A stretch of 41,126 nucleotides of DNA from a virus. Its lineage: Duplodnaviria > Heunggongvirae > Uroviricota > Caudoviricetes. A program made the translations under genes and the position numbers. This document shows, one piece after another, positions 1,071 to 41,126 of the stretch (its first letter is position 1; every line of letters starts with the position of its first letter). The notes beneath the pieces were generated by a model, which searched no databases, had not been told where the DNA came from, and saw nothing but the letters and a program-made list of their open reading frames with translations. Where the stretch lies: the IMG/VR virus record IMGVR_UViG_2706794694_000014, one strand, 5' to 3'.

Positions 1071-1341
1071 TTACTCCCTGACAGGGTTCGTAGGCCACTC
1101 AATATCAGGTGCAGTTGACGTATCAACACGGTTCAGCAATACCCGATACTTTTTCCATGCTTCCAGCAACGAGATTTCTTCCTCCGTTGCAATTTCCAGA
1201 TCTGCAGCATCCTGAAGCGGCGCAATATGCTCACTGGCTACCTGCATCAGGTTGTTTTTTGTTTCTTCCGCCTCCCGGATCCGGAACAGTTTTTCTGCTT
1301 CCGTATCCTTCACCCAGGCTGTGCCGTTCCACTTCTGAAAC
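1071..1341 (-). CDS. tfa: Tail fibre assembly protein Tfa, C-terminal part (N-terminus lost in N-run)
   Basis: C-terminal ...[28 protein letters not shown] matches the lambda Tfa C-terminus. The ORF track merges it with stf only because Ns translate as X. Confidence 0.7.
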
Positions 1342-1574
1342 NNNNNNNNNNNNNNNNNNNNNNNNNNNNNNNNNNNNNNNNNNNNNNNNNNNNNNNNNNN
1401 NNNNNNNNNNNNNNNNNNNNNNNNNNNNNNNNNNNNNNNNNNNNNNNNNNNNNNNNNNNNNNNNNNNNNNNNNNNNNNNNNNNNNNNNNNNNNNNNNNNN
1501 NNNNNNNNNNNNNNNNNNNNNNNNNNNNNNNNNNNNNNNNNNNNNNNNNNNNNNNNNNNNNNNNNNNNNNNNNN
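1342..1574. other. N-run (233 nt), assembly gap at stf/tfa boundary
   Basis: Run of n characters. Confidence 0.99.
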
Positions 1575-4286
1575 CATACCTACTGAGCCTTGTACACCCC
1601 AGGTATTTTGACCTGAGCTTGTATAACCATATTGATAAGTATCTTTAAAAACACTGGGGTTAAATCGACGGCCATCTCTATGGCTGTGATTACCAGCTGC
1701 ATTCGTGCTGCCACTTAAACTATGGGTATGCGCACCAGTGTTATTCGTGGATTTAGTGCCGTAATCAAACGACGATGTGGTTTTCGTCCCCAAATCCGTA
1801 CTGGATGCGCTGGCGCTGTGGGTATGCGATTTAATGCCGTCCTGTTCCTGAGACAATACGGCCCGACCACTGGCAGGTTTGCCCTTAATCGTCCAGCCAC
1901 GCATATCAGGGATCACGCCTGACGGATAAGCCGCTGCAAGTTTCGGGTATGCAGATTTGTCAAAAGCCTGCCCCTGCATCAGGGCATAGCCAGACGGAAC
2001 GGTATCTGATGGCCACGGGATTGGTGCGCCAGGCGGATAAAACTGCTCTGATGGCGTATAGAGTGAATAAACTGTACCGTCCGTTAACCCTTCCGGCTTA
2101 TTAGCAGAATATGCTGGTGACGTATGAATCGTCACGCTGGCATTACTGGTATAATCCCATTGAATATTTACACCAGTCGCATAATTTCCGATTGCAACGT
2201 AAATATCGTAAGTATCACCAGATGTATTAACCCAGGCAAAATTTGTAAACCCTGTCAATGTGCGCTGCCATAAAGCACCAGTAATCCCCTTCGGATTACC
2301 ATTACCTGCACGTAAAACAAGTTCAGATATACCTGCCTGTTGAGGTGACCCCACGTTAAATCCAGCGCCACCAATCAACGTAATTGAAACAACAGAACTC
2401 GCCTGTGGCATGGTTACCGTTGCTAATTTGAACCAACCAGCACCACCGCTGAATGACATTGTTGTTGAGTTAAGCGTACCAATATCTTTCGGCGTCAGTG
2501 TTATATCCGCTGAAAGCGCCTTACCATTCACCTTACGGGCAGAAGGTACCCGACCATTCGCATTGTCATTAGCTGCTTTCACTGCTTTCGGTGTCGCAGC
2601 AAGCGTTTCAGATGTGCTGTTGGTTGCACTACTGAGCTGGACAATTCCTTTTTGTGCTGTCGTAGCGTCCTGTGCGGTGTATTTCCCGTTAGCCAGGTCA
2701 TACGCGGCCTTAACGGCTTTTGGCGTTGCCGCCTGTGACTCGGAAGTGCTGTTAGTCGCACTGCTGAGCTGAACTATCCCTTTCTGTGCTGTCGTTGCAT
2801 CCTGTGCGGTGTATTTCCCGTTAGCCAGGTCATACGCGGCCTTAACGGCTTTTNNNNNNNNNNNNNNNNNNNNNNNNNNNNNNNNNNNNNNNNNNNNNNN
2901 NNNNNNNNNNNNNNNNNNNNNNNNNNNNNNNNNNNNNNNNNNNNNNNNNNNNNNNNNNNNNNNNNNNNNNNNNNNNNNNNNNNNNNNNNNNNNNNNNNNN
3001 NNNNNNNNNNNNNNNNNNNNNNNNNNNNNNNNNNNNNNNNNNNNNNNNNNNNNNNNNNNNNNNNNNNNNNNTGACGCCTGTCTGGTCGCCTCATCTTTTG
3101 AAGCAGACGCAGATGATGCCGATGACGCCGCCGAACTGGCGGACGATGCGGCAGCCGTTTTTGAGGATTCTGCGCTGGTTTCCGACGCTTTCGCGTTCGT
3201 TTCGGATGTCTTCGCTGCGGAAGCAGACCTCGCTGCTGCGCTGGCCTGTTCAGTGGCTTCGCCAGCCTTCGTTGTGGCTGTTGAAGCGGATGATGCGGCG
3301 CTTTCTGCCGATTTTCCGGCGGCGGTGGCACTGACTGCTGCCTCCTCTGCCTTAATGGACGCCTCACGGGCCGATGATGCAGCTGCTGTCTCAGAGTCTG
3401 CCGCAGCTGAGGCGCTCTGTTCCGCTGCCGTTTCAGAAGACTTAGCATTCGTCTCGGACGTTTTTGCCGCCTTCACGGAATTTCCTGCCGCCGTTGCCGA
3501 GGAGGCTGCACTGCTGGCGCTTGTGGAGGCGTTCGTTTCTGATGATTTTGCCGCCTCTTTGGAGGCCGCCGCATCTCTGGCTGAAGTGGCGGCTTCTGAC
3601 GCTTTCGTTGTCGCAGTGGATGCAGAAGTGGCTGCTGATTTTTGTGACGCTGCAGCATTCGTTTCTGACGTTTTCGCCGCACCGGCACTGGTGGCCGCCG
3701 CGCTTTTTGAGGACTCTGCAGCGGCAGCACTTTTTGATGCTTCAGTGGCCTTTGTTGATGCCGTTCCTGCGCTGGAAGACGCCTCCTGAGCCGAAGTCGC
3801 GGCCTGTCCGGCTGACGTGCTGGCTGCACGCGCTGAGCCTGCAGCATCAGTCGCATGGGTTGCCGCCTCACGGGCAGATGTGCCGGCATCACTGGCTGAC
3901 TTCTTCGCGGCTGCCGTGTTCTGTGCCACCGCGGACGCGTTACGCGCCACCTCTTCCACCATCAGTTCAAAACGGCGCAGAGCCTCCGGACGGGCATCAT
4001 CCTCCGTCATGGCACCGAGAAAATCATTCAGCGTACCGGGTCGGGAATCTTCATACACAGTGATGGTCCCGGCATGTGACGGCGGGAATCCTTCCACCAA
4101 CAGAATAACGCTGTACTGACCGTACTCAACGTCCATGCTGTAACGCCCGGCTTCATCCGGATTTTCTGAGGCCAGCGTGTTCACCACCACCGTGGTGCTG
4201 TTACGTTTTGCTTTCAGCTGGATTGTGCAGTTCTGTACCGGTTTTCCTGTGCCGTCTTTCAGTACACCTGAAATCTTTACTGCCAT
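1575..4286 (-). CDS. stf: Side tail fibre protein (lambda Stf homologue); C-terminus lost in gap, internal gap 2854-3071
   Basis: N-terminus [62 protein letters not shown] is near-identical to lambda Stf; long Ala/Ser/Thr-rich shaft; ATG at 4286 preceded by GGGGTG (track start 4292 is a GTG two codons upstream). Confidence 0.85.
2590..2853. repeat. Intragenic tandem repeat in stf (unit ~132 bp, at least 2 copies, continuing into gap)
   Basis: gtatttcccgttagccaggtcatacgcggccttaacggctttt occurs at ~2681-2723 and ~2811-2853; encoded peptide [41 protein letters not shown] repeated. Confidence 0.8.
2854..3071. other. N-run (218 nt) inside stf, adjacent to 132-bp tandem repeats
   Basis: Run of n characters immediately after a repeated 132-bp unit. 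Confidence 0.99.
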
Positions 4287-4295
4287 ATTCACCCC

Positions 4296-32721: not shown

Positions 32722-33215
32722 TAAGCCCCCACGTAATTCCCTGACAGATACCACTCTTCACCCGATGCAGCGCGCTTGCTGCTTTTCCGTAAGCACCGCT
32801 CACGACGCGCCAGAAAATTGTTTCGTTCTGGCTGGGAGTGGCTTTCACGGAATGCCGCCATCCACACCGTTGCAGCACGACGGTATAAGCCCCTGGACTC
32901 CAGTTCTTCCGCCTGGCGGGTCAGGCACAAAATCACCCGGGGATCGTTAGTGCCGACATAGAAATTGCGCACAGGTCTGGTTTCACGAACTGGTTGTGGT
33001 TCCGGCTCCTGCGCTCTCTCAGTCAGGCGTGGGAAATGTCTGCGTGTATCTCCTTCATAACGGTGAGCCACACGCCCACTCTGACGTAACTTGCTTGCTG
33101 ACTGCAGAACGCGCTGCCGTGAGTAACCTGCAAAAGCATCCGCAATGTCTCCGGAAGTACACCCCGGATGGGCTTCAATGAATTTCTGAACTTCATTCAA
33201 AAGACTCATGATCAC
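32721..33215 (-). CDS. PerC-family-like transcriptional regulator (putative)
   Basis: ...AEELESRGLYRRAATVWMAAF resembles the PerC/Pch signature; from memory. Confidence 0.4.
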   Translation of the reverse strand: MIMSLLNEVQKFIEAHPGCTSGDIADAFAGYSRQRVLQSASKLRQSGRVAHRYEGDTRRHFPRLTERAQEPEPQPVRETRPVRNFYVGTNDPRVILCLTRQAEELESRGLYRRAATVWMAAFRESHSQPERNNFLARRERCLRKSSKRAASGEEWYLSGNYVGA

Positions 33216-34030
33216 CCCCTGAATCCTGCCGGGATCTGGCTGTAGTCCACGTTGTCGTAACTGGCTTTGAAGTACGGGTCCTCGCGTCTGGCTGCAGATA
33301 CCGCAGGAACTTCCCAGAATTCTTCGAAATGACGATCCGGACCAAAGAACGTGACAGCCTGTTTCACAAATTGTGTGCCGCTGTTACCCATCGCAGATAC
33401 CCATCCCGCGTAGCGTTTCACACCTTCCAGCATGGTTTCGGGGTTTACTCCCTCATTCAAACGGGCTTTCCAGGCTTTGAAGGCTGCAGATTTTGAATTG
33501 CCACCAGCACGTTTGGGATATGCCAGCCATGCCTGCTCAAACTCCGGAGAGTATTCCGGTCGGTTTGAACGAACTCGCACGGACTCATCAACTGATGCAC
33601 CAACAGCTATTGGTTCATTGACTGGTTCTTTGACTGGTTCAAAAGAGTGACTGGTTCTGGGTGAATCTCCTGCACTACCCCCTGGTGCAACTCCTGCACT
33701 ACCTGGTGAATTTGCTGCACCAGATAGTGAATTATTTGCACTACCCCCTAGTGAATCTCCTGCACCATCCAGATGAAGGAGATAGATATTACTTGAGTTA
33801 CCTTTTTCACCTTTCCGGGTGACTTTTTTTACCAGCCCGGACTCACAAAGGGCCGCAATATGATTCATCACAGAACGTTTGCTAATTTCGCACTGGTCAG
33901 CAATATGCTGGTAGCTGGGCCAGCACTCACCCTGATCGCTGGCATTATCAGCCAGCTTGATCAGAACCAGTTTTCGCAATGGATTACCCACTCGAATTTT
34001 CATCGCTTTAACCATCAGCTCCATACTCAT
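33212..34030 (-). CDS. Putative replication initiation protein with N-terminal winged HTH
   Basis: N-terminal NPLRKLVLIKLADNASDQGECWPSYQHIADQCEISKRSVMNHIAALCESGLV; low-complexity Gly/Ser linker; position of O. Confidence 0.5.
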   Translation of the reverse strand: MSMELMVKAMKIRVGNPLRKLVLIKLADNASDQGECWPSYQHIADQCEISKRSVMNHIAALCESGLVKKVTRKGEKGNSSNIYLLHLDGAGDSLGGSANNSLSGAANSPGSAGVAPGGSAGDSPRTSHSFEPVKEPVNEPIAVGASVDESVRVRSNRPEYSPEFEQAWLAYPKRAGGNSKSAAFKAWKARLNEGVNPETMLEGVKRYAGWVSAMGNSGTQFVKQAVTFFGPDRHFEEFWEVPAVSAARREDPYFKASYDNVDYSQIPAGFRG

Positions 34031-34263
34031 GCTGCACCTCCGAGATGCTTCATGTTTTTTCCGGAGCGAAAGGCTATAAGCGGCATACTGACGCGGTAAT
34101 TACGGCCCAGCGGTTCACAAATCACCTTCTGGCATTCACGGTCAACCAGGCTAACACGTAGAACATGCCCTGCAGGCGTGGTGTACCACTGCCCAACTGT
34201 AGGAATTGATATTTTTTTACGCTGAAGCAAACGGCAAATATTGAGGATCAACGGATTAAGCAT
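34027..34263 (-). CDS. Hypothetical protein
   Basis: 78-aa ORF coupled by overlap to both neighbours. Confidence 0.4.
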   Translation of the reverse strand: MLNPLILNICRLLQRKKISIPTVGQWYTTPAGHVLRVSLVDRECQKVICEPLGRNYRVSMPLIAFRSGKNMKHLGGAA

Positions 34264-35092
34264 GACGATGCCCTCCGCTGATATTCAGGAGACGGTGAAT
34301 ATGAAAATTAGCCTTATCCGCCAGACGAATACGTTCAGCTTGCAAGTTAAGAAGGGTTTCTACCAGAACCTGATGTGCCTGCGGATCCGAAAGAGTTACC
34401 TTGCGCAGAGCACGTAGTGCAGTTGTTACATAACTGAGTTTATGTAAGTCTTCATCATTCAGACGAGTGAGGGCTGGGACAGTAGCCATGATGGCAGCCT
34501 CCTTGATCGGTGAAATACTTCCACCACCGGAAACGCCAATTTCGCTGGTGGTGAACTGAACGGGGTTGGCGTAACCGGTGATCAAGGAAACCGGCGCATC
34601 TTTCGATGCCCCCGCCCAGCCCACCATAACTTTGATGTGAGCAAATGCGGACGATAAAAAAGACGCTGGCGCGTCATATATCGCCTTGATCAATTCCAGG
34701 ACGCCAATCCCGGCACCCGCTTTATAAGGTGCCTGAACAGTGTAACGTCCCGGAATGGCAGAATCAATGTGCTGGTGGTCCTTCACACTCAACAAAATCA
34801 CGCCTGAATTTCCACAAAGGACTAAAGCACTCATGCGGGTAGTCTTTGCGAAGATAGATAACGCGCTGTGTTTCTGGCTCCCAACGAATAACATGAACAT
34901 AAAGTCCTCTTCCGTCACGAAACCAGCGGTTAAGTTCCTGCACAACTCGCCCCCCACAGTCAGGTAAAGTTCTCTGTGGTTACTTACAGCCAGGTGATTT
35001 GGTAATCTGCATTCATGCCGTAACAACAGGTGTTCAGCGACGCTGACCACCAGCTGTTGCGACAAACGGTTATTTGCCGTTAAACTGTTCAT
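34256..35092 (-). CDS. Hypothetical protein (replication-region, unrecognised)
   Basis: 278-aa ORF translationally coupled to neighbours; no motif recognised. Confidence 0.5.
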   Translation of the reverse strand: MNSLTANNRLSQQLVVSVAEHLLLRHECRLPNHLAVSNHRELYLTVGGELCRNLTAGFVTEEDFMFMLFVGSQKHSALSIFAKTTRMSALVLCGNSGVILLSVKDHQHIDSAIPGRYTVQAPYKAGAGIGVLELIKAIYDAPASFLSSAFAHIKVMVGWAGASKDAPVSLITGYANPVQFTTSEIGVSGGGSISPIKEAAIMATVPALTRLNDEDLHKLSYVTTALRALRKVTLSDPQAHQVLVETLLNLQAERIRLADKANFHIHRLLNISGGHRHA

Positions 35093-35884: not shown

Positions 35885-35974
35885 ACAATATGTACCTCCG
35901 GTATACATATTACATGATTGAGATGAACCTTCAAGATACTTGTACCTTATCGGTACAAAGGTTTTAATTTCTTT
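35885..35974. promoter_or_regulatory. Immunity-region operator/promoter (OR-like) with palindromic operator candidates and divergent promoters
   Basis: tgtacctccggtataca (~35891-35907) and ttgtacc-ttatc-ggtacaa (~35940-35958); candidate rightward promoter on minus strand (-35 TTGAAG, -10 TAATAT). Confidence 0.6.
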
Positions 35975-36649
35975 ATGAAAACAGTCCATGACATCCGGCG
36001 GTCTAACGCCAGAAAACTGAGAGATGGTGTTGGCGGGAATTCTTCCTTTGCCACCATGATTGATCGCGAGCCAACCCAGACCAGCAGGTTTATGGGAGAT
36101 GGTGCAACTAAAAATATCGGTGACAGCATGGCACGGCACATCGAAAAATGTTTCGACCTGCCTGTCGGATGGCTTGATCAAGAACACCAGACAACGAACA
36201 TCACAAAAAAACCTGACGTTTCAATCACTAACAAACAAATAACGTTAGTCCCTGTCATATCATGGGTACAGGCCGGAGCATGGAAAGAAGTTGGCTATTC
36301 TGAGGTTGATTTGAGCACAGCAGAAACTTATCCCTGCCCTGTACCCTGTGGCGAAATGACTTATATCTTGCGGGTGATTGGTGATTCAATGATTGATGAG
36401 TACCGCCCGGGAGACATGATTTTTGTTGATCCTGAAGTCCCTGCCTGCCACGGTGACGACGTTATTGCATTGATGCACGATACAGGCGAAACCACCTTCA
36501 AGCGGTTGATAGAAGATGGAACACAGCGTTATCTCAAAGCATTAAACCCAAACTGGCCTGAGCCTTACATTAAGATTAACGGTAATTGCTCTATAATTGG
36601 TACAGTGATTTTCTCAGGAAAACCAAGAAGATACATAATAAAGGCCTAA
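35975..36649 (+). CDS. CI-like prophage repressor (HTH + LexA-like S24 autopeptidase domain)
   Basis: C-terminal VISWVQAGAWKEV...LRVIGDSMIDEYRPGDMIFVDPE...FKRLIEDG...LKALNPNWPEPYIKINGNCSIIGTV closely parallels P22 C2 / lambda CI. Confidence 0.9.
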   Translation: MKTVHDIRRSNARKLRDGVGGNSSFATMIDREPTQTSRFMGDGATKNIGDSMARHIEKCFDLPVGWLDQEHQTTNITKKPDVSITNKQITLVPVISWVQAGAWKEVGYSEVDLSTAETYPCPVPCGEMTYILRVIGDSMIDEYRPGDMIFVDPEVPACHGDDVIALMHDTGETTFKRLIEDGTQRYLKALNPNWPEPYIKINGNCSIIGTVIFSGKPRRYIIKA

Positions 36650-36660
36650 TCAATATTTAT

Positions 36661-36684
36661 AACCTGCTTCGGCAGGTTTTTTTA
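36661..36684 (+). terminator. Rho-independent terminator after cI
   Basis: cctgc-ttcg-gcagg followed by ttttttt. Confidence 0.75.
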
Positions 36685-36687
36685 TAC

Positions 36688-36716
36688 TTGACAATGTACC
36701 TTTGGGATACATAATG
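36688..36716 (+). promoter_or_regulatory. PL-like early-left promoter with embedded operator
   Basis: -35 TTGACA, 16-17 nt spacer, -10 CATAAT; spacer contains tgtacctttgggataca, matching the OR operator motif. Confidence 0.6.
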
Positions 36717-37152
36717 TATCTAAAAGAAACACAGCACAGGCAAGATTAAACAAAATTTGGTTGTAACACGGCGTATGGCACATGCGTCGTTAGCGGTCTG
36801 GGGACGTTAAAGGGGACAATCCACTCCTTGCTCGGGCAAACAAACCAGGTAGCCGGAATGTGCAAGTCAATGATGATGCTGATAAGACGCCTAACCAGCG
36901 TGGCGATTCGGTTTGACGCCTGGGAAGAGACCAGGGTGCAACGATGAGGACATTTATGGAACCGCGACAAAGTGTGGTGCCGTAACTGGCTAAGTGCTCT
37001 CAGCGTTGTGGTGAATGCGCAGGCTGATGCGCGAAAGACATTGCAGCTAATGCGGAAAAGAGCTGTTCGGCGGGGCAATTAAACGCCCGTGAGAGTCTGA
37101 AATAACCGCAAGCCGGAGATCAGCACCGGTCACCACAACAGCCACTGCTTTG

Positions 37153-37198
37153 GCGGTACCAGTTTGTACACTTGCTTCCGGCTGGTACCGCTCTTTTT
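37153..37198 (+). terminator. Terminator-like hairpin in the early-left leader (tL-like)
   Basis: 10-bp perfect inverted repeat gcggtaccag ... ctggtaccgc with 19-nt loop, followed by tcttttt. Confidence 0.5.
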
Positions 37199-37201
37199 AC
37201 A

Positions 37202-37284
37202 AAACAGAGAAGAGCATCACCGGACGACGGGCTCATAACCAAATCCATCCGGGCGGCTGCCACCGCAGGTGTTCTTCTCTGTTT
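37202..37284 (+). ncRNA. Structured leader RNA element (12-bp perfect inverted repeat enclosing ~59 nt) upstream of the first early-left gene
   Basis: aaacagagaaga (37202-37213) pairs with tcttctctgttt (37273-37284); no ORF longer than ~30 codons with an ATG start in the 600-nt leader. Confidence 0.35.
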
Positions 37285-37335
37285 TGTGGAGAAACCAACC
37301 GACCTTGCAGGGTCGATATGATTAGGAGCAGCAAA

Positions 37336-37698
37336 ATGGCTAGCGAACGCAGTACTGATGTGCAGGCATTTATTGGGGAGCTGGACGGCGGCGTATTTGA
37401 AACCAAAATCGGCGCAGTTCTCAGTGAAGTCGCTTCCGGTGTGATGAACACGAAAACCAAAGGTAAGGTCTCACTCAACCTGGAAATCGAACCATTTGAT
37501 GAGAACCGTGTGAAAATCAAACACAAACTCTCATATGTTCGCCCGACTAACCGCGGGAAAATTTCCGAAGAAGACACCACCGAAACGCCGATGTATGTCA
37601 ATCGCGGTGGTCGCCTGACTATTCTGCAGGAAGACCAGGGACAATTACTGACTCTTGCCGGTGAACCTGACGGAAAACTCCGCGCAGCAGGTCATTAA
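37336..37698 (+). CDS. Hypothetical early protein (YfdP-like)
   Basis: 121 aa from MASERSTDVQAFIGELDGG with AGGAG RBS; the track ORF 37150..37698 is an upstream extension. Confidence 0.6.
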   Translation: MASERSTDVQAFIGELDGGVFETKIGAVLSEVASGVMNTKTKGKVSLNLEIEPFDENRVKIKHKLSYVRPTNRGKISEEDTTETPMYVNRGGRLTILQEDQGQLLTLAGEPDGKLRAAGH

Positions 37699-38588: not shown

Positions 38589-38599
38589 TTTCATTACTG

Positions 38600-38626
38600 C
38601 AAATGCCCCTGCGGGGGCATTTACGG
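38600..38626 (+). terminator. Terminator-like hairpin after the YfdQ-like gene
   Basis: atgcccc-tgc-gggggcat followed by ttac (weak U-run). Confidence 0.4.
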
Positions 38627-38764
38627 AAGCGATAATTTTAACTATTGCCGCCCCTATAAAGAACCATTAAACAATAACGTGACGTAGCTATTGATAGTAA
38701 ATGAAGCACTTGCAAAATAATTGCATTGCGTATATATACACACATGTGTTGTATTACAGCGATA

Positions 38765-40137: not shown

Positions 40138-40557
40138 TTACTCATCATCAATAGATGATACGCAATATTTATTTTTAAATTTAAGGTTCTTTGGCGTAAC
40201 TTCATCAGATATATCAAAACCGTCCAGAATTCTATTGAATGTAGCTTCTGGCATATCATCATGAACGGAAATCTCACCCGATCGCTGCTTTCTAACCATG
40301 TTATCCACTCGCCAAATTATAGCTTCAGCGTAAACAACATAACTTGGATGCTTGATAAAGCGATGATCACCAGAATTCAAGACGCAAGACGGATCGTGGG
40401 GGACACCATCCTTGATACTAGAAATATTAACAACTAAAACACAATAACAATCGTTAACGGGGTAATAAACAGGATCATTACAAATCACATGAAGATGATT
40501 GCATGGCCCAGTTGGGGCAAGCACAGTTCCTTTCCTGTATGGCTGATAATCCGTCAT
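40138..40557 (-). CDS. Unrecognised Cys/His-rich protein (139 aa), candidate toxin/effector partner of the Panacea-domain protein
   Basis: 4-bp overlap with the upstream Panacea gene; GPCNHLHVICNDPVYYPVNDCYCV...HDPSCVLNSGDHRF Cys/His cluster; no family recognised. Confidence 0.6.
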   Translation of the reverse strand: MTDYQPYRKGTVLAPTGPCNHLHVICNDPVYYPVNDCYCVLVVNISSIKDGVPHDPSCVLNSGDHRFIKHPSYVVYAEAIIWRVDNMVRKQRSGEISVHDDMPEATFNRILDGFDISDEVTPKNLKFKNKYCVSSIDDE

Positions 40558-41126
40558 GATAATTGCAAAGAAAATTCCTTAAGTTTCTGAGATTCTTCCA
40601 TTTTGCCAATTATACGATTAGCCTCATCCTCGCTTTTACCCTCACTGATCAGCATTTCTTTCAGGTCTATAGGCTTACGAGAATTGCCAGGATTGTGCCA
40701 CTCTGGACAAACGCTTTCTAAATGCGTCATGTTTGCGAGATCAAATCGGTTCATATGCCCATACAGAGAATAGATTTCATCTAAAATCCGGATATCTGCA
40801 CGGCTCAACTCATCAAAGACCTCGTCTGCATCCATTTCCCTCGGATCTGAACGCAACAACACATCATGCCCGTTCGTCTCTATCAGGTTGTACCAGTAGT
40901 CACCAATACCTTCAGCCTTACCACGAATCAAGTTCAGCGTATTCGACATGACTGGACCAAATTTCATAGAGTAAAGGCTATCTTCGCCGATCATCCTGCC
41001 ATGCTTCAAAATCGACTTGCGGTTAGACAGATAGAGCAGCTTCATCAATTTCAGATATGCCATGCGCCCACCTCGCTTAAGAAGTAGGTATGCAGCCATT
41101 TGAGCTACTTTTTCTTCGCAAAACAT
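40554..41126 (-). CDS. Panacea (DUF4065) domain protein, putative PanA-type antitoxin
   Basis: MAYLKLMKLLYLSNRKSILKHGRMIGEDSLYSMKFGPVMSN matches the DUF4065 signature (K-L-x-K-L-L-Y ... GPV) as recalled; ATG is the last codon of the window. Confidence 0.65.
   Translation of the reverse strand: MFCEEKVAQMAAYLLLKRGGRMAYLKLMKLLYLSNRKSILKHGRMIGEDSLYSMKFGPVMSNTLNLIRGKAEGIGDYWYNLIETNGHDVLLRSDPREMDADEVFDELSRADIRILDEIYSLYGHMNRFDLANMTHLESVCPEWHNPGNSRKPIDLKEMLISEGKSEDEANRIIGKMEESQKLKEFSLQLS

Follow-up and report, generated by a model that had tools for sequence, protein, structure and literature searches.

The IMG/VR virus record IMGVR_UViG_2706794694_000014 is a lambdoid prophage, whose whole stretch of 41,126 nucleotides (nt) is called here the window. 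We have analyzed its early left leader (positions 36650–37335), which follows a cI-like repressor gene and precedes a yfdP-like gene. The leader is 100% identical to Escherichia coli 6409, and the phages nearest to the window are mEp460, cdtI, Ayreon, and SfV, as shown by BLAST against E. coli genomes and phage records. The locus contains two RNA families supported by covariation, module A and module B (type B1), which are found neither in Rfam 15 nor in the literature that can be searched. A helix, P0, links them, and they are followed by an intrinsic terminator and by a long hairpin. The features of the region are listed in Table 1.

Table 1. Features detected between the cI-like repressor gene and the yfdP-like gene (bp, base pairs).
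Feature	Position	Strand	Description
cI-like repressor gene	35975–36649	+	Peptidase_S24 domain
Intrinsic terminator of the cI-like repressor gene	36661–36685	+	7-bp GC-rich stem (36661–36678), then T-run
PL-like sigma-70 promoter	36688–36715	+	TTGACA, 16-nt spacer, CATAAT; 11/12 consensus positions
Module A, conserved pseudoknotted RNA	36768–36935	+	Covariation, 115 distinct copies
Module A, helix Ha	36769–36789	+	
Module A, invariant core	36848–36866	+	GGUAGCCGGAAUGUGCAAG
Module A, helix Hd, pseudoknot, and helix Hf	within 36886–36935	+	Hf loop GAAGAGA
Helix P0	36943–37004	+	5' strand GAUGAGGACAUUUA (36943–36956) with 3' strand UAAGUGCUCUCAGC (36991–37004); variable hairpin enclosed
Module B (type B1), tRNA-like layout	37007–37137	+	Covariation, 110 distinct cores
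Module B, P1	37007–37013 with 37131–37137	+	7-bp closing stem
Module B, joiner	37014–37016	+	AAU
Module B, P2 hairpin	37017–37032	+	Loop AGGCUGAU
Module B, variable insert	37033–37111	+	
Module B, P3 hairpin	37112–37130	+	Loop AGAUCAGCA
Intrinsic terminator closing the RNA cassette	37152–37199	+	13-bp stem within 37152–37192, 15-nt loop, then CUCUUUUU
Long near-perfect hairpin	37196–37290	+	23–25 bp, directly upstream of the yfdP ribosome-binding region
Small hairpin (37300–37315), Shine-Dalgarno AGGAG, and yfdP-like ATG	37300–37338	+	Folding, list of open reading frames
yfdP-like gene	37336–37698	+	ATG 37336, AGGAG Shine-Dalgarno upstream; phrog_204, E = 1e-49

The untranslated leader

Promoter-like sites are not enriched as a class in this region (4 found, 4.1 expected). 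The PL-like promoter is singled out because its spacer holds an operator-like repeat (36694–36713), with copies in the OR region at 35890–35909 and 35941–35957, and because it lies directly after the S24 repressor gene: It is a repressor-controlled promoter. Phage Ayreon has an annotated promoter and terminator in this position. About 614 nt separate the presumed transcription start from the ATG of the yfdP-like gene. A preliminary description of this sequence had predicted such a promoter after the cI terminator, a first credible start codon about 620 nt downstream, no ATG-initiated open reading frame (ORF) above some 30 codons and no N-like gene, and all these points hold. The terminator-like hairpin which it mentioned is stronger than stated, since its stem has 13 bp instead of 10. 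Its 12-bp perfect inverted repeat is also present, with 59 nt enclosed, but the perfect core (inverted repeat I1) is in fact 15 nt long (37199–37213 with 37273–37287), inside a stem of 23–25 bp.

The leader carries no N-like gene and no conserved ORF. On the + strand, the longest ATG-initiated ORF has 29 amino acids (aa), and TTG or GTG starts give 39, 36, and 49 aa. None of the leader ORFs matches Pfam or PHROGs. The ORF which starts at an invariant ATG within module A has from 5 to 80 aa and codes for unrelated peptides across the 115 copies of this module. The spacers between conserved blocks have lengths in all three mod-3 classes. Conserved G-U pairs in A and B would be A-C mismatches if the opposite strand were read, so the folded strand is the + strand, the one transcribed from PL. 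Because of these unrelated peptides, off-frame spacers and strand-specific G-U pairs, the ORFs annotated over this region in mEp460 (110 aa, - strand) and Ayreon are doubtful, as are plp and upl in phage P1.

The terminator hairpin folds at -21.2 kcal/mol (z = -5.0) and the long hairpin at -47.7 kcal/mol (z = -6.5). The whole leader folds only modestly better than shuffles (z = -2.5), so the evidence for its structure is comparative. Compensatory changes are found in A, P0, B, and the terminator. The long hairpin travels with yfdP in most E. coli matches (positions 501–691 of the query). It is a candidate RNase III site, a role suggested by what is known of lambda. The PL leader of lambda is also long and untranslated, with a long duplex just before the ribosome-binding site of the first gene, but the window has neither an N gene nor a free boxA.

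Module A and helix P0

At least 115 distinct copies of module A are present in the loci that we have fetched, and pattern scans of IMG/VR gave at least 120 contigs each. No Rfam 15 family matches it. In 43 distinct cores, 97.9% of the cells are paired, compared with about 30% when the partner is slid, and 77 cells show double changes, compared with 22.9 in shuffles. Four helices form the module, one of them a pseudoknot in which the 7-nt loop of Hd (CACC or AACC) pairs with GGUG or GGUU further downstream. Its diagnostic pair is C-G in 35 of these cores and A-U in the other 8; it is broken in none. Several loops and joiners are invariant: GGCAC, the core sequence given in Table 1 and GAAGAGA.

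This module is found in P1, in phiV10-like phages and in many phages of IMG/VR. In most cases it either begins a transcript, at its 5' end, or comes immediately after the transfer RNA (tRNA) gene tRNA-Ile2. In several loci a promoter lies directly upstream. The P1 segment is placed between trnI and the ban ribosome-binding site; in phiV10-like phages the segment stands behind its own promoter, directly before tRNA-Arg(UCU). A P1-like plasmid has one leader segment directly before tRNA-Ser and another one directly after tRNA-Ile2.

Helix P0 (10–12 bp, enclosing a hairpin of about 43 nt) links module A to module B. Compensatory variants are found across loci: AAGAGCAUUG/CAGUGCUCUU, GAGAACACUGG/CCAGUGUUCUC, and AAGCGCAC/GUGCGCUU. 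At least 11 of 12 positions are complementary in 43 of the 73 copies which bear the motif. The 3' strand (AGUGCUCUU) resembles boxA, a likeness which is discussed below. In one IMG/VR contig (L059, positions 384–430), P0 contains a near-consensus type I hammerhead ribozyme (28.7 bits with a gathering score of 34, E = 6.5e-4). Its location inside P0, between the two modules, suggests that the junction between A and its payload is a processing site.

A hairpin, ACCACCGAGCCUGAnGUGGUGAAAAGACAGGC, recurs just upstream of A modules or of the B2 modules described below, in SfV (L319, 1865–1900) and in several IMG/VR loci. Its sequence almost coincides with the 3' part of the sas RNA of P22, as listed in PMC13397905.

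Structure of module B

Copies of module B have been anchored independently on their 5' and 3' halves, which gives 143 unique full copies with 110 distinct cores. The consensus is formed by stem P1, an AAU joiner, hairpin P2 (GCGC-AGGCUGAU-GCGC), an insert, a single A and hairpin P3 (GCCGG-AGAUCAGCA-CCGGC), which abuts the 3' strand of P1. In the 110 cores, each of the seven pairs of P1 is paired in more than 93% of the sequences, with changes on both sides in 3–36 sequences per pair; P2 and P3 are paired in 97.5% and 98.5%. The whole structure is 87% paired, compared with 30–50% when the partners are slid. Its covariation score is 0.267, compared with 0.096 in shuffles, and none of 500 shuffles reaches this value.

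There is no spacer between P1 (alignment columns 6–12 and 59–65) and the 3' strand of P3 (columns 54–58), and pairing decays beyond the seventh P1 pair. The 7 and 5 bp are thus stacked without interruption, like the acceptor and T arms of tRNA. The loops of P2 and P3 are complementary (GCUGAU/AUCAGC, 96%) but invariant, so a contact between them is beyond the reach of a covariation test. The insert is hypervariable, with 206 distinct versions of 12–213 nt, among which no seed-like or anticodon-like feature is conserved.

Rfam 15 has given no match for A or B1, whether the window was searched at the gathering score, the leader at E <= 10 or 34 related loci were examined. Two other identities have been discarded. 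The P2 loop (CUGAU) could recall a hammerhead ribozyme, but GAAA is not conserved and Rfam gives no hammerhead match in the window. The inverted repeat GTTGTGG...CCACAAC could belong to an integron attC site or to a miniature inverted-repeat transposable element, but it has conserved internal hairpins and strand-specific G-U pairs.

Genomic slots of module B

The module B of the window is found in 852 of 5426 complete E. coli genomes, with 725 places in chromosomes and 237 in plasmids, none of which has it annotated. An exact 20-mer of its 5' half is also present in Kosakonia, Erwinia, Pantoea, Pseudomonas, Burkholderia, Xanthomonas, Stenotrophomonas, Dyella, Massilia, Thauera, Halomonas, Rhizobium, and Methylobacterium, as well as in a few metagenome-assembled genomes assigned outside Proteobacteria. 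Complete copies occur in 85 of the 120 genome loci fetched. None of these copies is covered by an Rfam family.

Clustering of 3618 neighboring ORFs shows three slots. The first one lies 350–450 nt downstream of cI-type repressors, on the same strand: It is the PL-leader position, as in the window. The second slot is the late leader, between Q-like, RusA, or NinG genes and holin, endolysin, or spanin genes; the B of HK620 stands after the annotated pR'/qut and before the late terminator tQ. In the P22-like phages L and Sf6, this late-leader position is occupied by tRNAs (PMC8022706). The third slot is inside tRNA arrays, with a spacing of 0–11 nt, and in Klebsiella phage IME207 a B segment precedes tRNA-Ser and tRNA-Arg. 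In these slots, the leader is transcribed without antitermination. Nothing but markers of the slots (repressor, Q-like, holin, endolysin, spanin, yfdP/yfdQ) came out of the clustering, and no conserved protein partner was found.

Phage P1 (L005, AF234172) has a B1-type module, plus a P0 with an STnc100-type core, at 1310–1700, between tRNA-Thr and tciA. Both are on the strand of the ban operon and overlap plp and upl, annotated on the opposite strand, which may be spurious.

B as a possible tRNA mimic

B might copy the top half of a tRNA, with the two loops as its elbow, so that RNase P or other tRNA enzymes cut the polycistronic RNA there, or it might be a decoy, early in infection, for a host defence nuclease or toxin which targets tRNA. 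Such a role is a serious alternative to the small-RNA cassette proposed below, with which it is partly compatible, although we consider it unlikely. B shares several traits with phage tRNAs and with tRNA-like RNAs such as transfer-messenger RNA (tmRNA), YrlA, and mascRNA: Its 7-bp terminal stem runs on without a gap into the 5-bp stem of a hairpin, and towards the 5' side there is a 4-bp hairpin, which in B follows a 3-nt joiner. The complementary loops of B also favor this reading. A 7-bp acceptor-like stem is cited as a major determinant for RNase P (PMC4201824). B replaces real tRNAs, or sits among them at tRNA-like spacing: It occupies the same slots as phage tRNA genes and is exchangeable with them. 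The immediate-early slot also fits, and Tad2 adjoins the cluster of tRNAs and B in the P1-like plasmid.

Nevertheless, B has no anticodon arm and no consensus of the T or D loops. CCA is not conserved: NCCA follows the stem in only 16 of the 143 copies, which weakens the idea of a CCA-ended tRNA-like RNA, and the copy in the window reads ACAG. P1 often reaches 9–12 bp and its 5' flank is paired in P0 up to the stem, which is unfavorable for RNase P. A loop-loop helix of six base pairs would give a geometry unlike the tRNA elbow. ARAGORN detects no tRNA genes in the window, and the Rfam tRNA model (RF00005) has no match in the leader even at E <= 10; tmRNA models do not match B either. As for the bacterial Y RNA YrlA, its model (RF02553) matches no B copy. 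The rsr (Ro60) neighbor, the GNCGAA motif and the tRNA-type T loop of YrlA (PMC4201824) are absent, and the recurrent neighbor clusters include no TROVE-like gene.

GOLLD and ROOL are ornate non-coding RNAs of phages and prophages, often next to tRNAs or exchangeable with them. The leader differs from them in its host range, Proteobacteria, and in having smaller modules instead of one fold of 600–800 nt. The Rfam models of GOLLD, ROOL, and C4-CI RNAs have no match in the leader, in sequence or structure.

A possible role in antitermination

The preliminary description had suggested antitermination by RNA, as in the put sites of phage HK022. Module A, module B, or both would then act in cis: They would bind the polymerase and carry it past the terminator at 37152–37199 and further on, replacing N. 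Like the leader, HK022 put is formed by structured RNA of the nascent transcript, after PL, in a lambdoid phage without N. In the window, where no N-like gene is present, the early promoter precedes the elements and a strong terminator follows them, and read-through into yfdP needs to be explained. Besides, B recurs at both lambdoid antitermination positions, the PL leader and, in HK620, the pR' leader before tR'.

However, put is an RNA of about 70 nt with two stem-loops in a V shape, present as a related pair downstream of PL and PR, and acts on the zinc-binding domain of the polymerase beta' subunit (PMC9378689). The cores of A and B are single-copy in the window (up to 3 mismatches allowed), with no paired copy after PR, and the PR (minus) strand has only chance-level matches of 14–28 nt to the leader between 33000 and 37400. 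The architecture is also different: A starts about 47 nt after the presumed transcription start and has about 170 nt, with at least four helices and a pseudoknot, and B is a multi-helix junction with an insert. Both modules are also found where there is nothing to antiterminate: among the tRNAs of arrays, in phages which are virulent and, in P1, directly upstream of the ban ribosome-binding site, with no terminator to overcome. As for HK620, Q and qut already deal with its late terminator. A put-like role is therefore improbable and we have found no support for it, but the other part of the original interpretation, a structured non-coding RNA which could be a small RNA or riboregulator, comes close to what we regard as the best reading.

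It could also be thought that the leader has a nut site which depends on an N protein not yet recognized, or that it codes for a small protein on either strand. We consider this the least probable of all the readings discussed here. A boxA-like GUGCUCUC is found at 36994–37001, 15 nt before the GC-stem hairpin P2, and there are ORFs of 29–49 aa on the + strand, apart from the 110-aa ORF on the - strand. A boxA is single-stranded (CGCUCUUA or UGCUCUUUAACA), whereas GUGCUCUC is paired as the 3' strand of the covarying helix P0. For this reason we have dropped boxA as the primary role of GUGCUCUU. The P2 loop has 8 nt, so it is not a boxB pentaloop, and is invariant and shared with phages which lack any N. 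There is no arginine-rich N downstream in the window, where a yfdP-like gene comes first. Neither the length nor the frame nor the sequence of the leader ORFs is conserved, and they match no family. Since the G-U pattern assigns the structure to the + strand, this structure does not derive from a gene on the opposite strand.

Prophages from other Proteobacteria allow a direct comparison. Four of their PL leaders (L396, L411, L416, and L423) have a perfect boxA (CGCTCTTTAACA or TGCTCTTTAACAA). In L416 and L423, boxA is followed by module B and by an arginine-rich N-like ORF, and L416 also has a boxB-like hairpin after boxA. Some PL leaders of Pseudomonas-type prophages present all four elements: perfect boxA, boxB-like hairpin, B, and arginine-rich N-like ORF. 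B is thus distinct from the nut site, since it lies as an extra element between this site and the N-like ORF, which also speaks against a put-like role. In L416 and L423, B occupies the position of the RNase III hairpin of lambda.

Exchange of payloads and probable relation to STnc100

The window has been aligned with a phiV10-like phage, Ayreon, and SfV at the homologous site. Upstream, the window, Ayreon, and the phiV10-like phage do not differ in sequence; SfV shares only the last bases of this stretch (...AGCGUUGUGG). All four have the same downstream terminator. Between these boundaries the payload changes: It is B1 in the window and in mEp460, tRNA-Arg(UCU) in the phiV10-like phage, another stem-closed RNA in Ayreon and a core of a second type, B2, in SfV. 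The stem of the terminator shows compensatory changes, both after tRNA-Arg in the phiV10-like phage and after the B2 core in SfV. According to this alignment, the hairpin first described as terminator-like is the conserved 3' end of an RNA cassette, common to phiV10-like phages and SfV.

The leader is a mosaic, in which query segments 100–362, 353–491, and 501–691 are each distributed separately in E. coli genomes and phage records. This mosaic, and the conserved flanks around swapped payloads, which favor homologous exchange, might mean that the modules are non-functional debris: recombination scars, or linkers kept because they promote exchange between phages. Such an explanation is very improbable, because compensatory changes maintain at least eight helices, a 20-nt stretch is exact across bacterial classes and the G-U pairs are strand-specific.

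The B2 core is related to a known small RNA. In SfV, payload plus terminator match the full-length Rfam model STnc100 (RF02076) with 39.5 bits and E = 4e-6. In P1 and in the P1-like plasmid, the match of the B2 core covers positions 31–147 of the model. The scores of these three cores (33–39.5 bits, E from 4e-6 to 8e-4) are all below the gathering score of 47 bits. STnc100 is an expressed small RNA of lambdoid prophages, found for example in a late operon, 75 nt downstream of stx2 (PMC12370729). According to a preprint, PasD, an Hfq-dependent small RNA of enteropathogenic E. coli, may be a relative of STnc100 (PMC13192938). Dependence on Hfq is known only for the Pas small RNAs (PMC8550237).

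B1 and STnc100 coincide in their closing stem (xxUGGUG/CACCAxx) and in their AAU joiner, which is followed at once by a hairpin. In both, a CCGG-type hairpin (CCGGG in STnc100) abuts the 3' strand of the closing stem, variable hairpins lie in between, and a linker and an intrinsic terminator follow. In SfV, the STnc100-type RNA sits exactly where the window has B and its terminator. On the other hand, the two loops of B1 differ from those of STnc100, being invariant and mutually complementary, and B1 ranges far beyond enterobacteria.

A weak full-length STnc100 match (23 bits, E = 0.35) is also found in Ayreon (L001, 4411–4591), downstream of the yfdQ homologue, where it overlaps an annotated terminator; the corresponding stretch of the window, after yfdQ, is 38589–38725.

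A proposed small-RNA cassette

The explanation which we favor, with moderate confidence, is that the locus is an immediate-early cassette for a small RNA similar to STnc100. It would be formed by PL, A, P0, B, and the terminator, with processing of the B RNA and expression of yfdP and yfdQ by read-through. Judging from the sequence comparisons, the stretch between PL and yfdP would be better seen as mobile RNA genes which have been inserted than as a single cis-acting leader.

In this cassette, A, P0, and B would be transcribed in this order from PL, and most transcripts would end at the terminator. The precursor would be cut in or near P0 and at the base of the 7-bp stem of B, releasing a stable RNA of about 190 nt: B, the terminator hairpin and a U-tail. 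B would be a sibling of STnc100 and, by analogy, would act in trans, its hypervariable insert providing specificity and its conserved tRNA-like scaffold providing stability, processing, or binding of a host factor. Only polymerases which read through the terminator would transcribe yfdP and yfdQ, whose messenger would probably be separated or stabilized by the long hairpin before yfdP. The RNA structures and their conservation, the genomic slots, the swapping of payloads and the lack of coding are shown by the data, and the processing, the action in trans and the partner proteins are inferred.

Several observations weigh against this explanation. The STnc100 model has no match between 36400 and 37600 of the window at E <= 10, nor does it match the B1 copies of mEp460, HK620, IME207, and the P1-like plasmid. 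Since the model misses B1, the kinship between both RNAs rests on their layout and locus. A terminator-like hairpin is found within 130 nt after B in 33 of the 143 copies; with an obvious terminator in so few cases, many copies of B sit inside longer transcripts. The loops do not vary from Escherichia to Rhizobium, which would be expected of a partner that is universal, or of a contact that is tertiary or intermolecular, more than of a mere scaffold carrying base-pairing seeds. B is not a tRNA either, since the anticodon arm and the loop consensus are missing. The cassette model also leaves unexplained how yfdP and yfdQ get past a strong terminator. As for expression, the late and PL leader RNAs of P22 (P22E and P22B) are not of B type (PMC13397905), so the small-RNA dataset of this phage gives no support for B.

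A further proposal is more tentative, and we are almost evenly divided about it, leaning to doubt. According to it, A and B1 are two undescribed phage RNA families: B1 would be a pan-proteobacterial mimic of the top half of tRNA, whose loops bind a universal host component or self-assemble, and A would be a new 5'-terminal domain with a pseudoknot, possibly catalytic or able to bind a ligand or a protein. No description of A or B1 came from searching the literature for phage RNAs similar to tRNA, or its text for the exact sequences.

Other elements of the window

Other RNAs and repeats are found elsewhere in the window. At 34544–34732 (- strand), the PR operon holds a tandem of C4 antisense RNA (82 bits) and isrK (64 bits). 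They are inside a 278-aa ORF (34256–35092) with an Ash-family domain; the whole looks like an RNA-based immunity or anti-Q module, next to a cII-like gene. A full-length IS009 RNA (RF02111, 221 bits) is found at 1114–1312 (- strand), inside an ORF of the tail-fibre region (1071–4292). A 2026 preprint places IS009 among the most prevalent Rfam neighbors of the prophage small RNA PasB, which may be nearby in the window. Five iteron-like repeats of 19 nt, 21–24 nt apart, are located at 33660–33768, inside the replication gene 33212–34030, and are probably a replication origin. At the edge of the window (40138–41126, - strand) there are two overlapping ORFs of 190 and 139 aa. The first one resembles by eye the DUF4065/SocA antitoxin, and both may form a toxin-antitoxin or defence pair.

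Significance

About one in six complete E. coli genomes, as well as P1, HK620, and many proteobacterial prophages, carry a covariation-supported RNA which escapes every annotation and every Rfam model. Several records even have spurious ORFs annotated over such RNAs. A lambdoid phage without N need not use a put-type RNA: The early left genes of this prophage are behind a genuine terminator. STnc100-type small RNAs, the new core and real tRNAs are interchangeable payloads, which gives a testable picture of how phages package and express non-coding RNAs in their first (PL) or constitutive (pR') slots. If the more tentative proposal made above is true, the scaffolded RNAs of phages, including STnc100 and PasD, would share a single architecture and the same slots: PL leaders, late leaders, and tRNA arrays. 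The cassette would also bear on the question of why phages carry tRNAs and tRNA-like RNAs.

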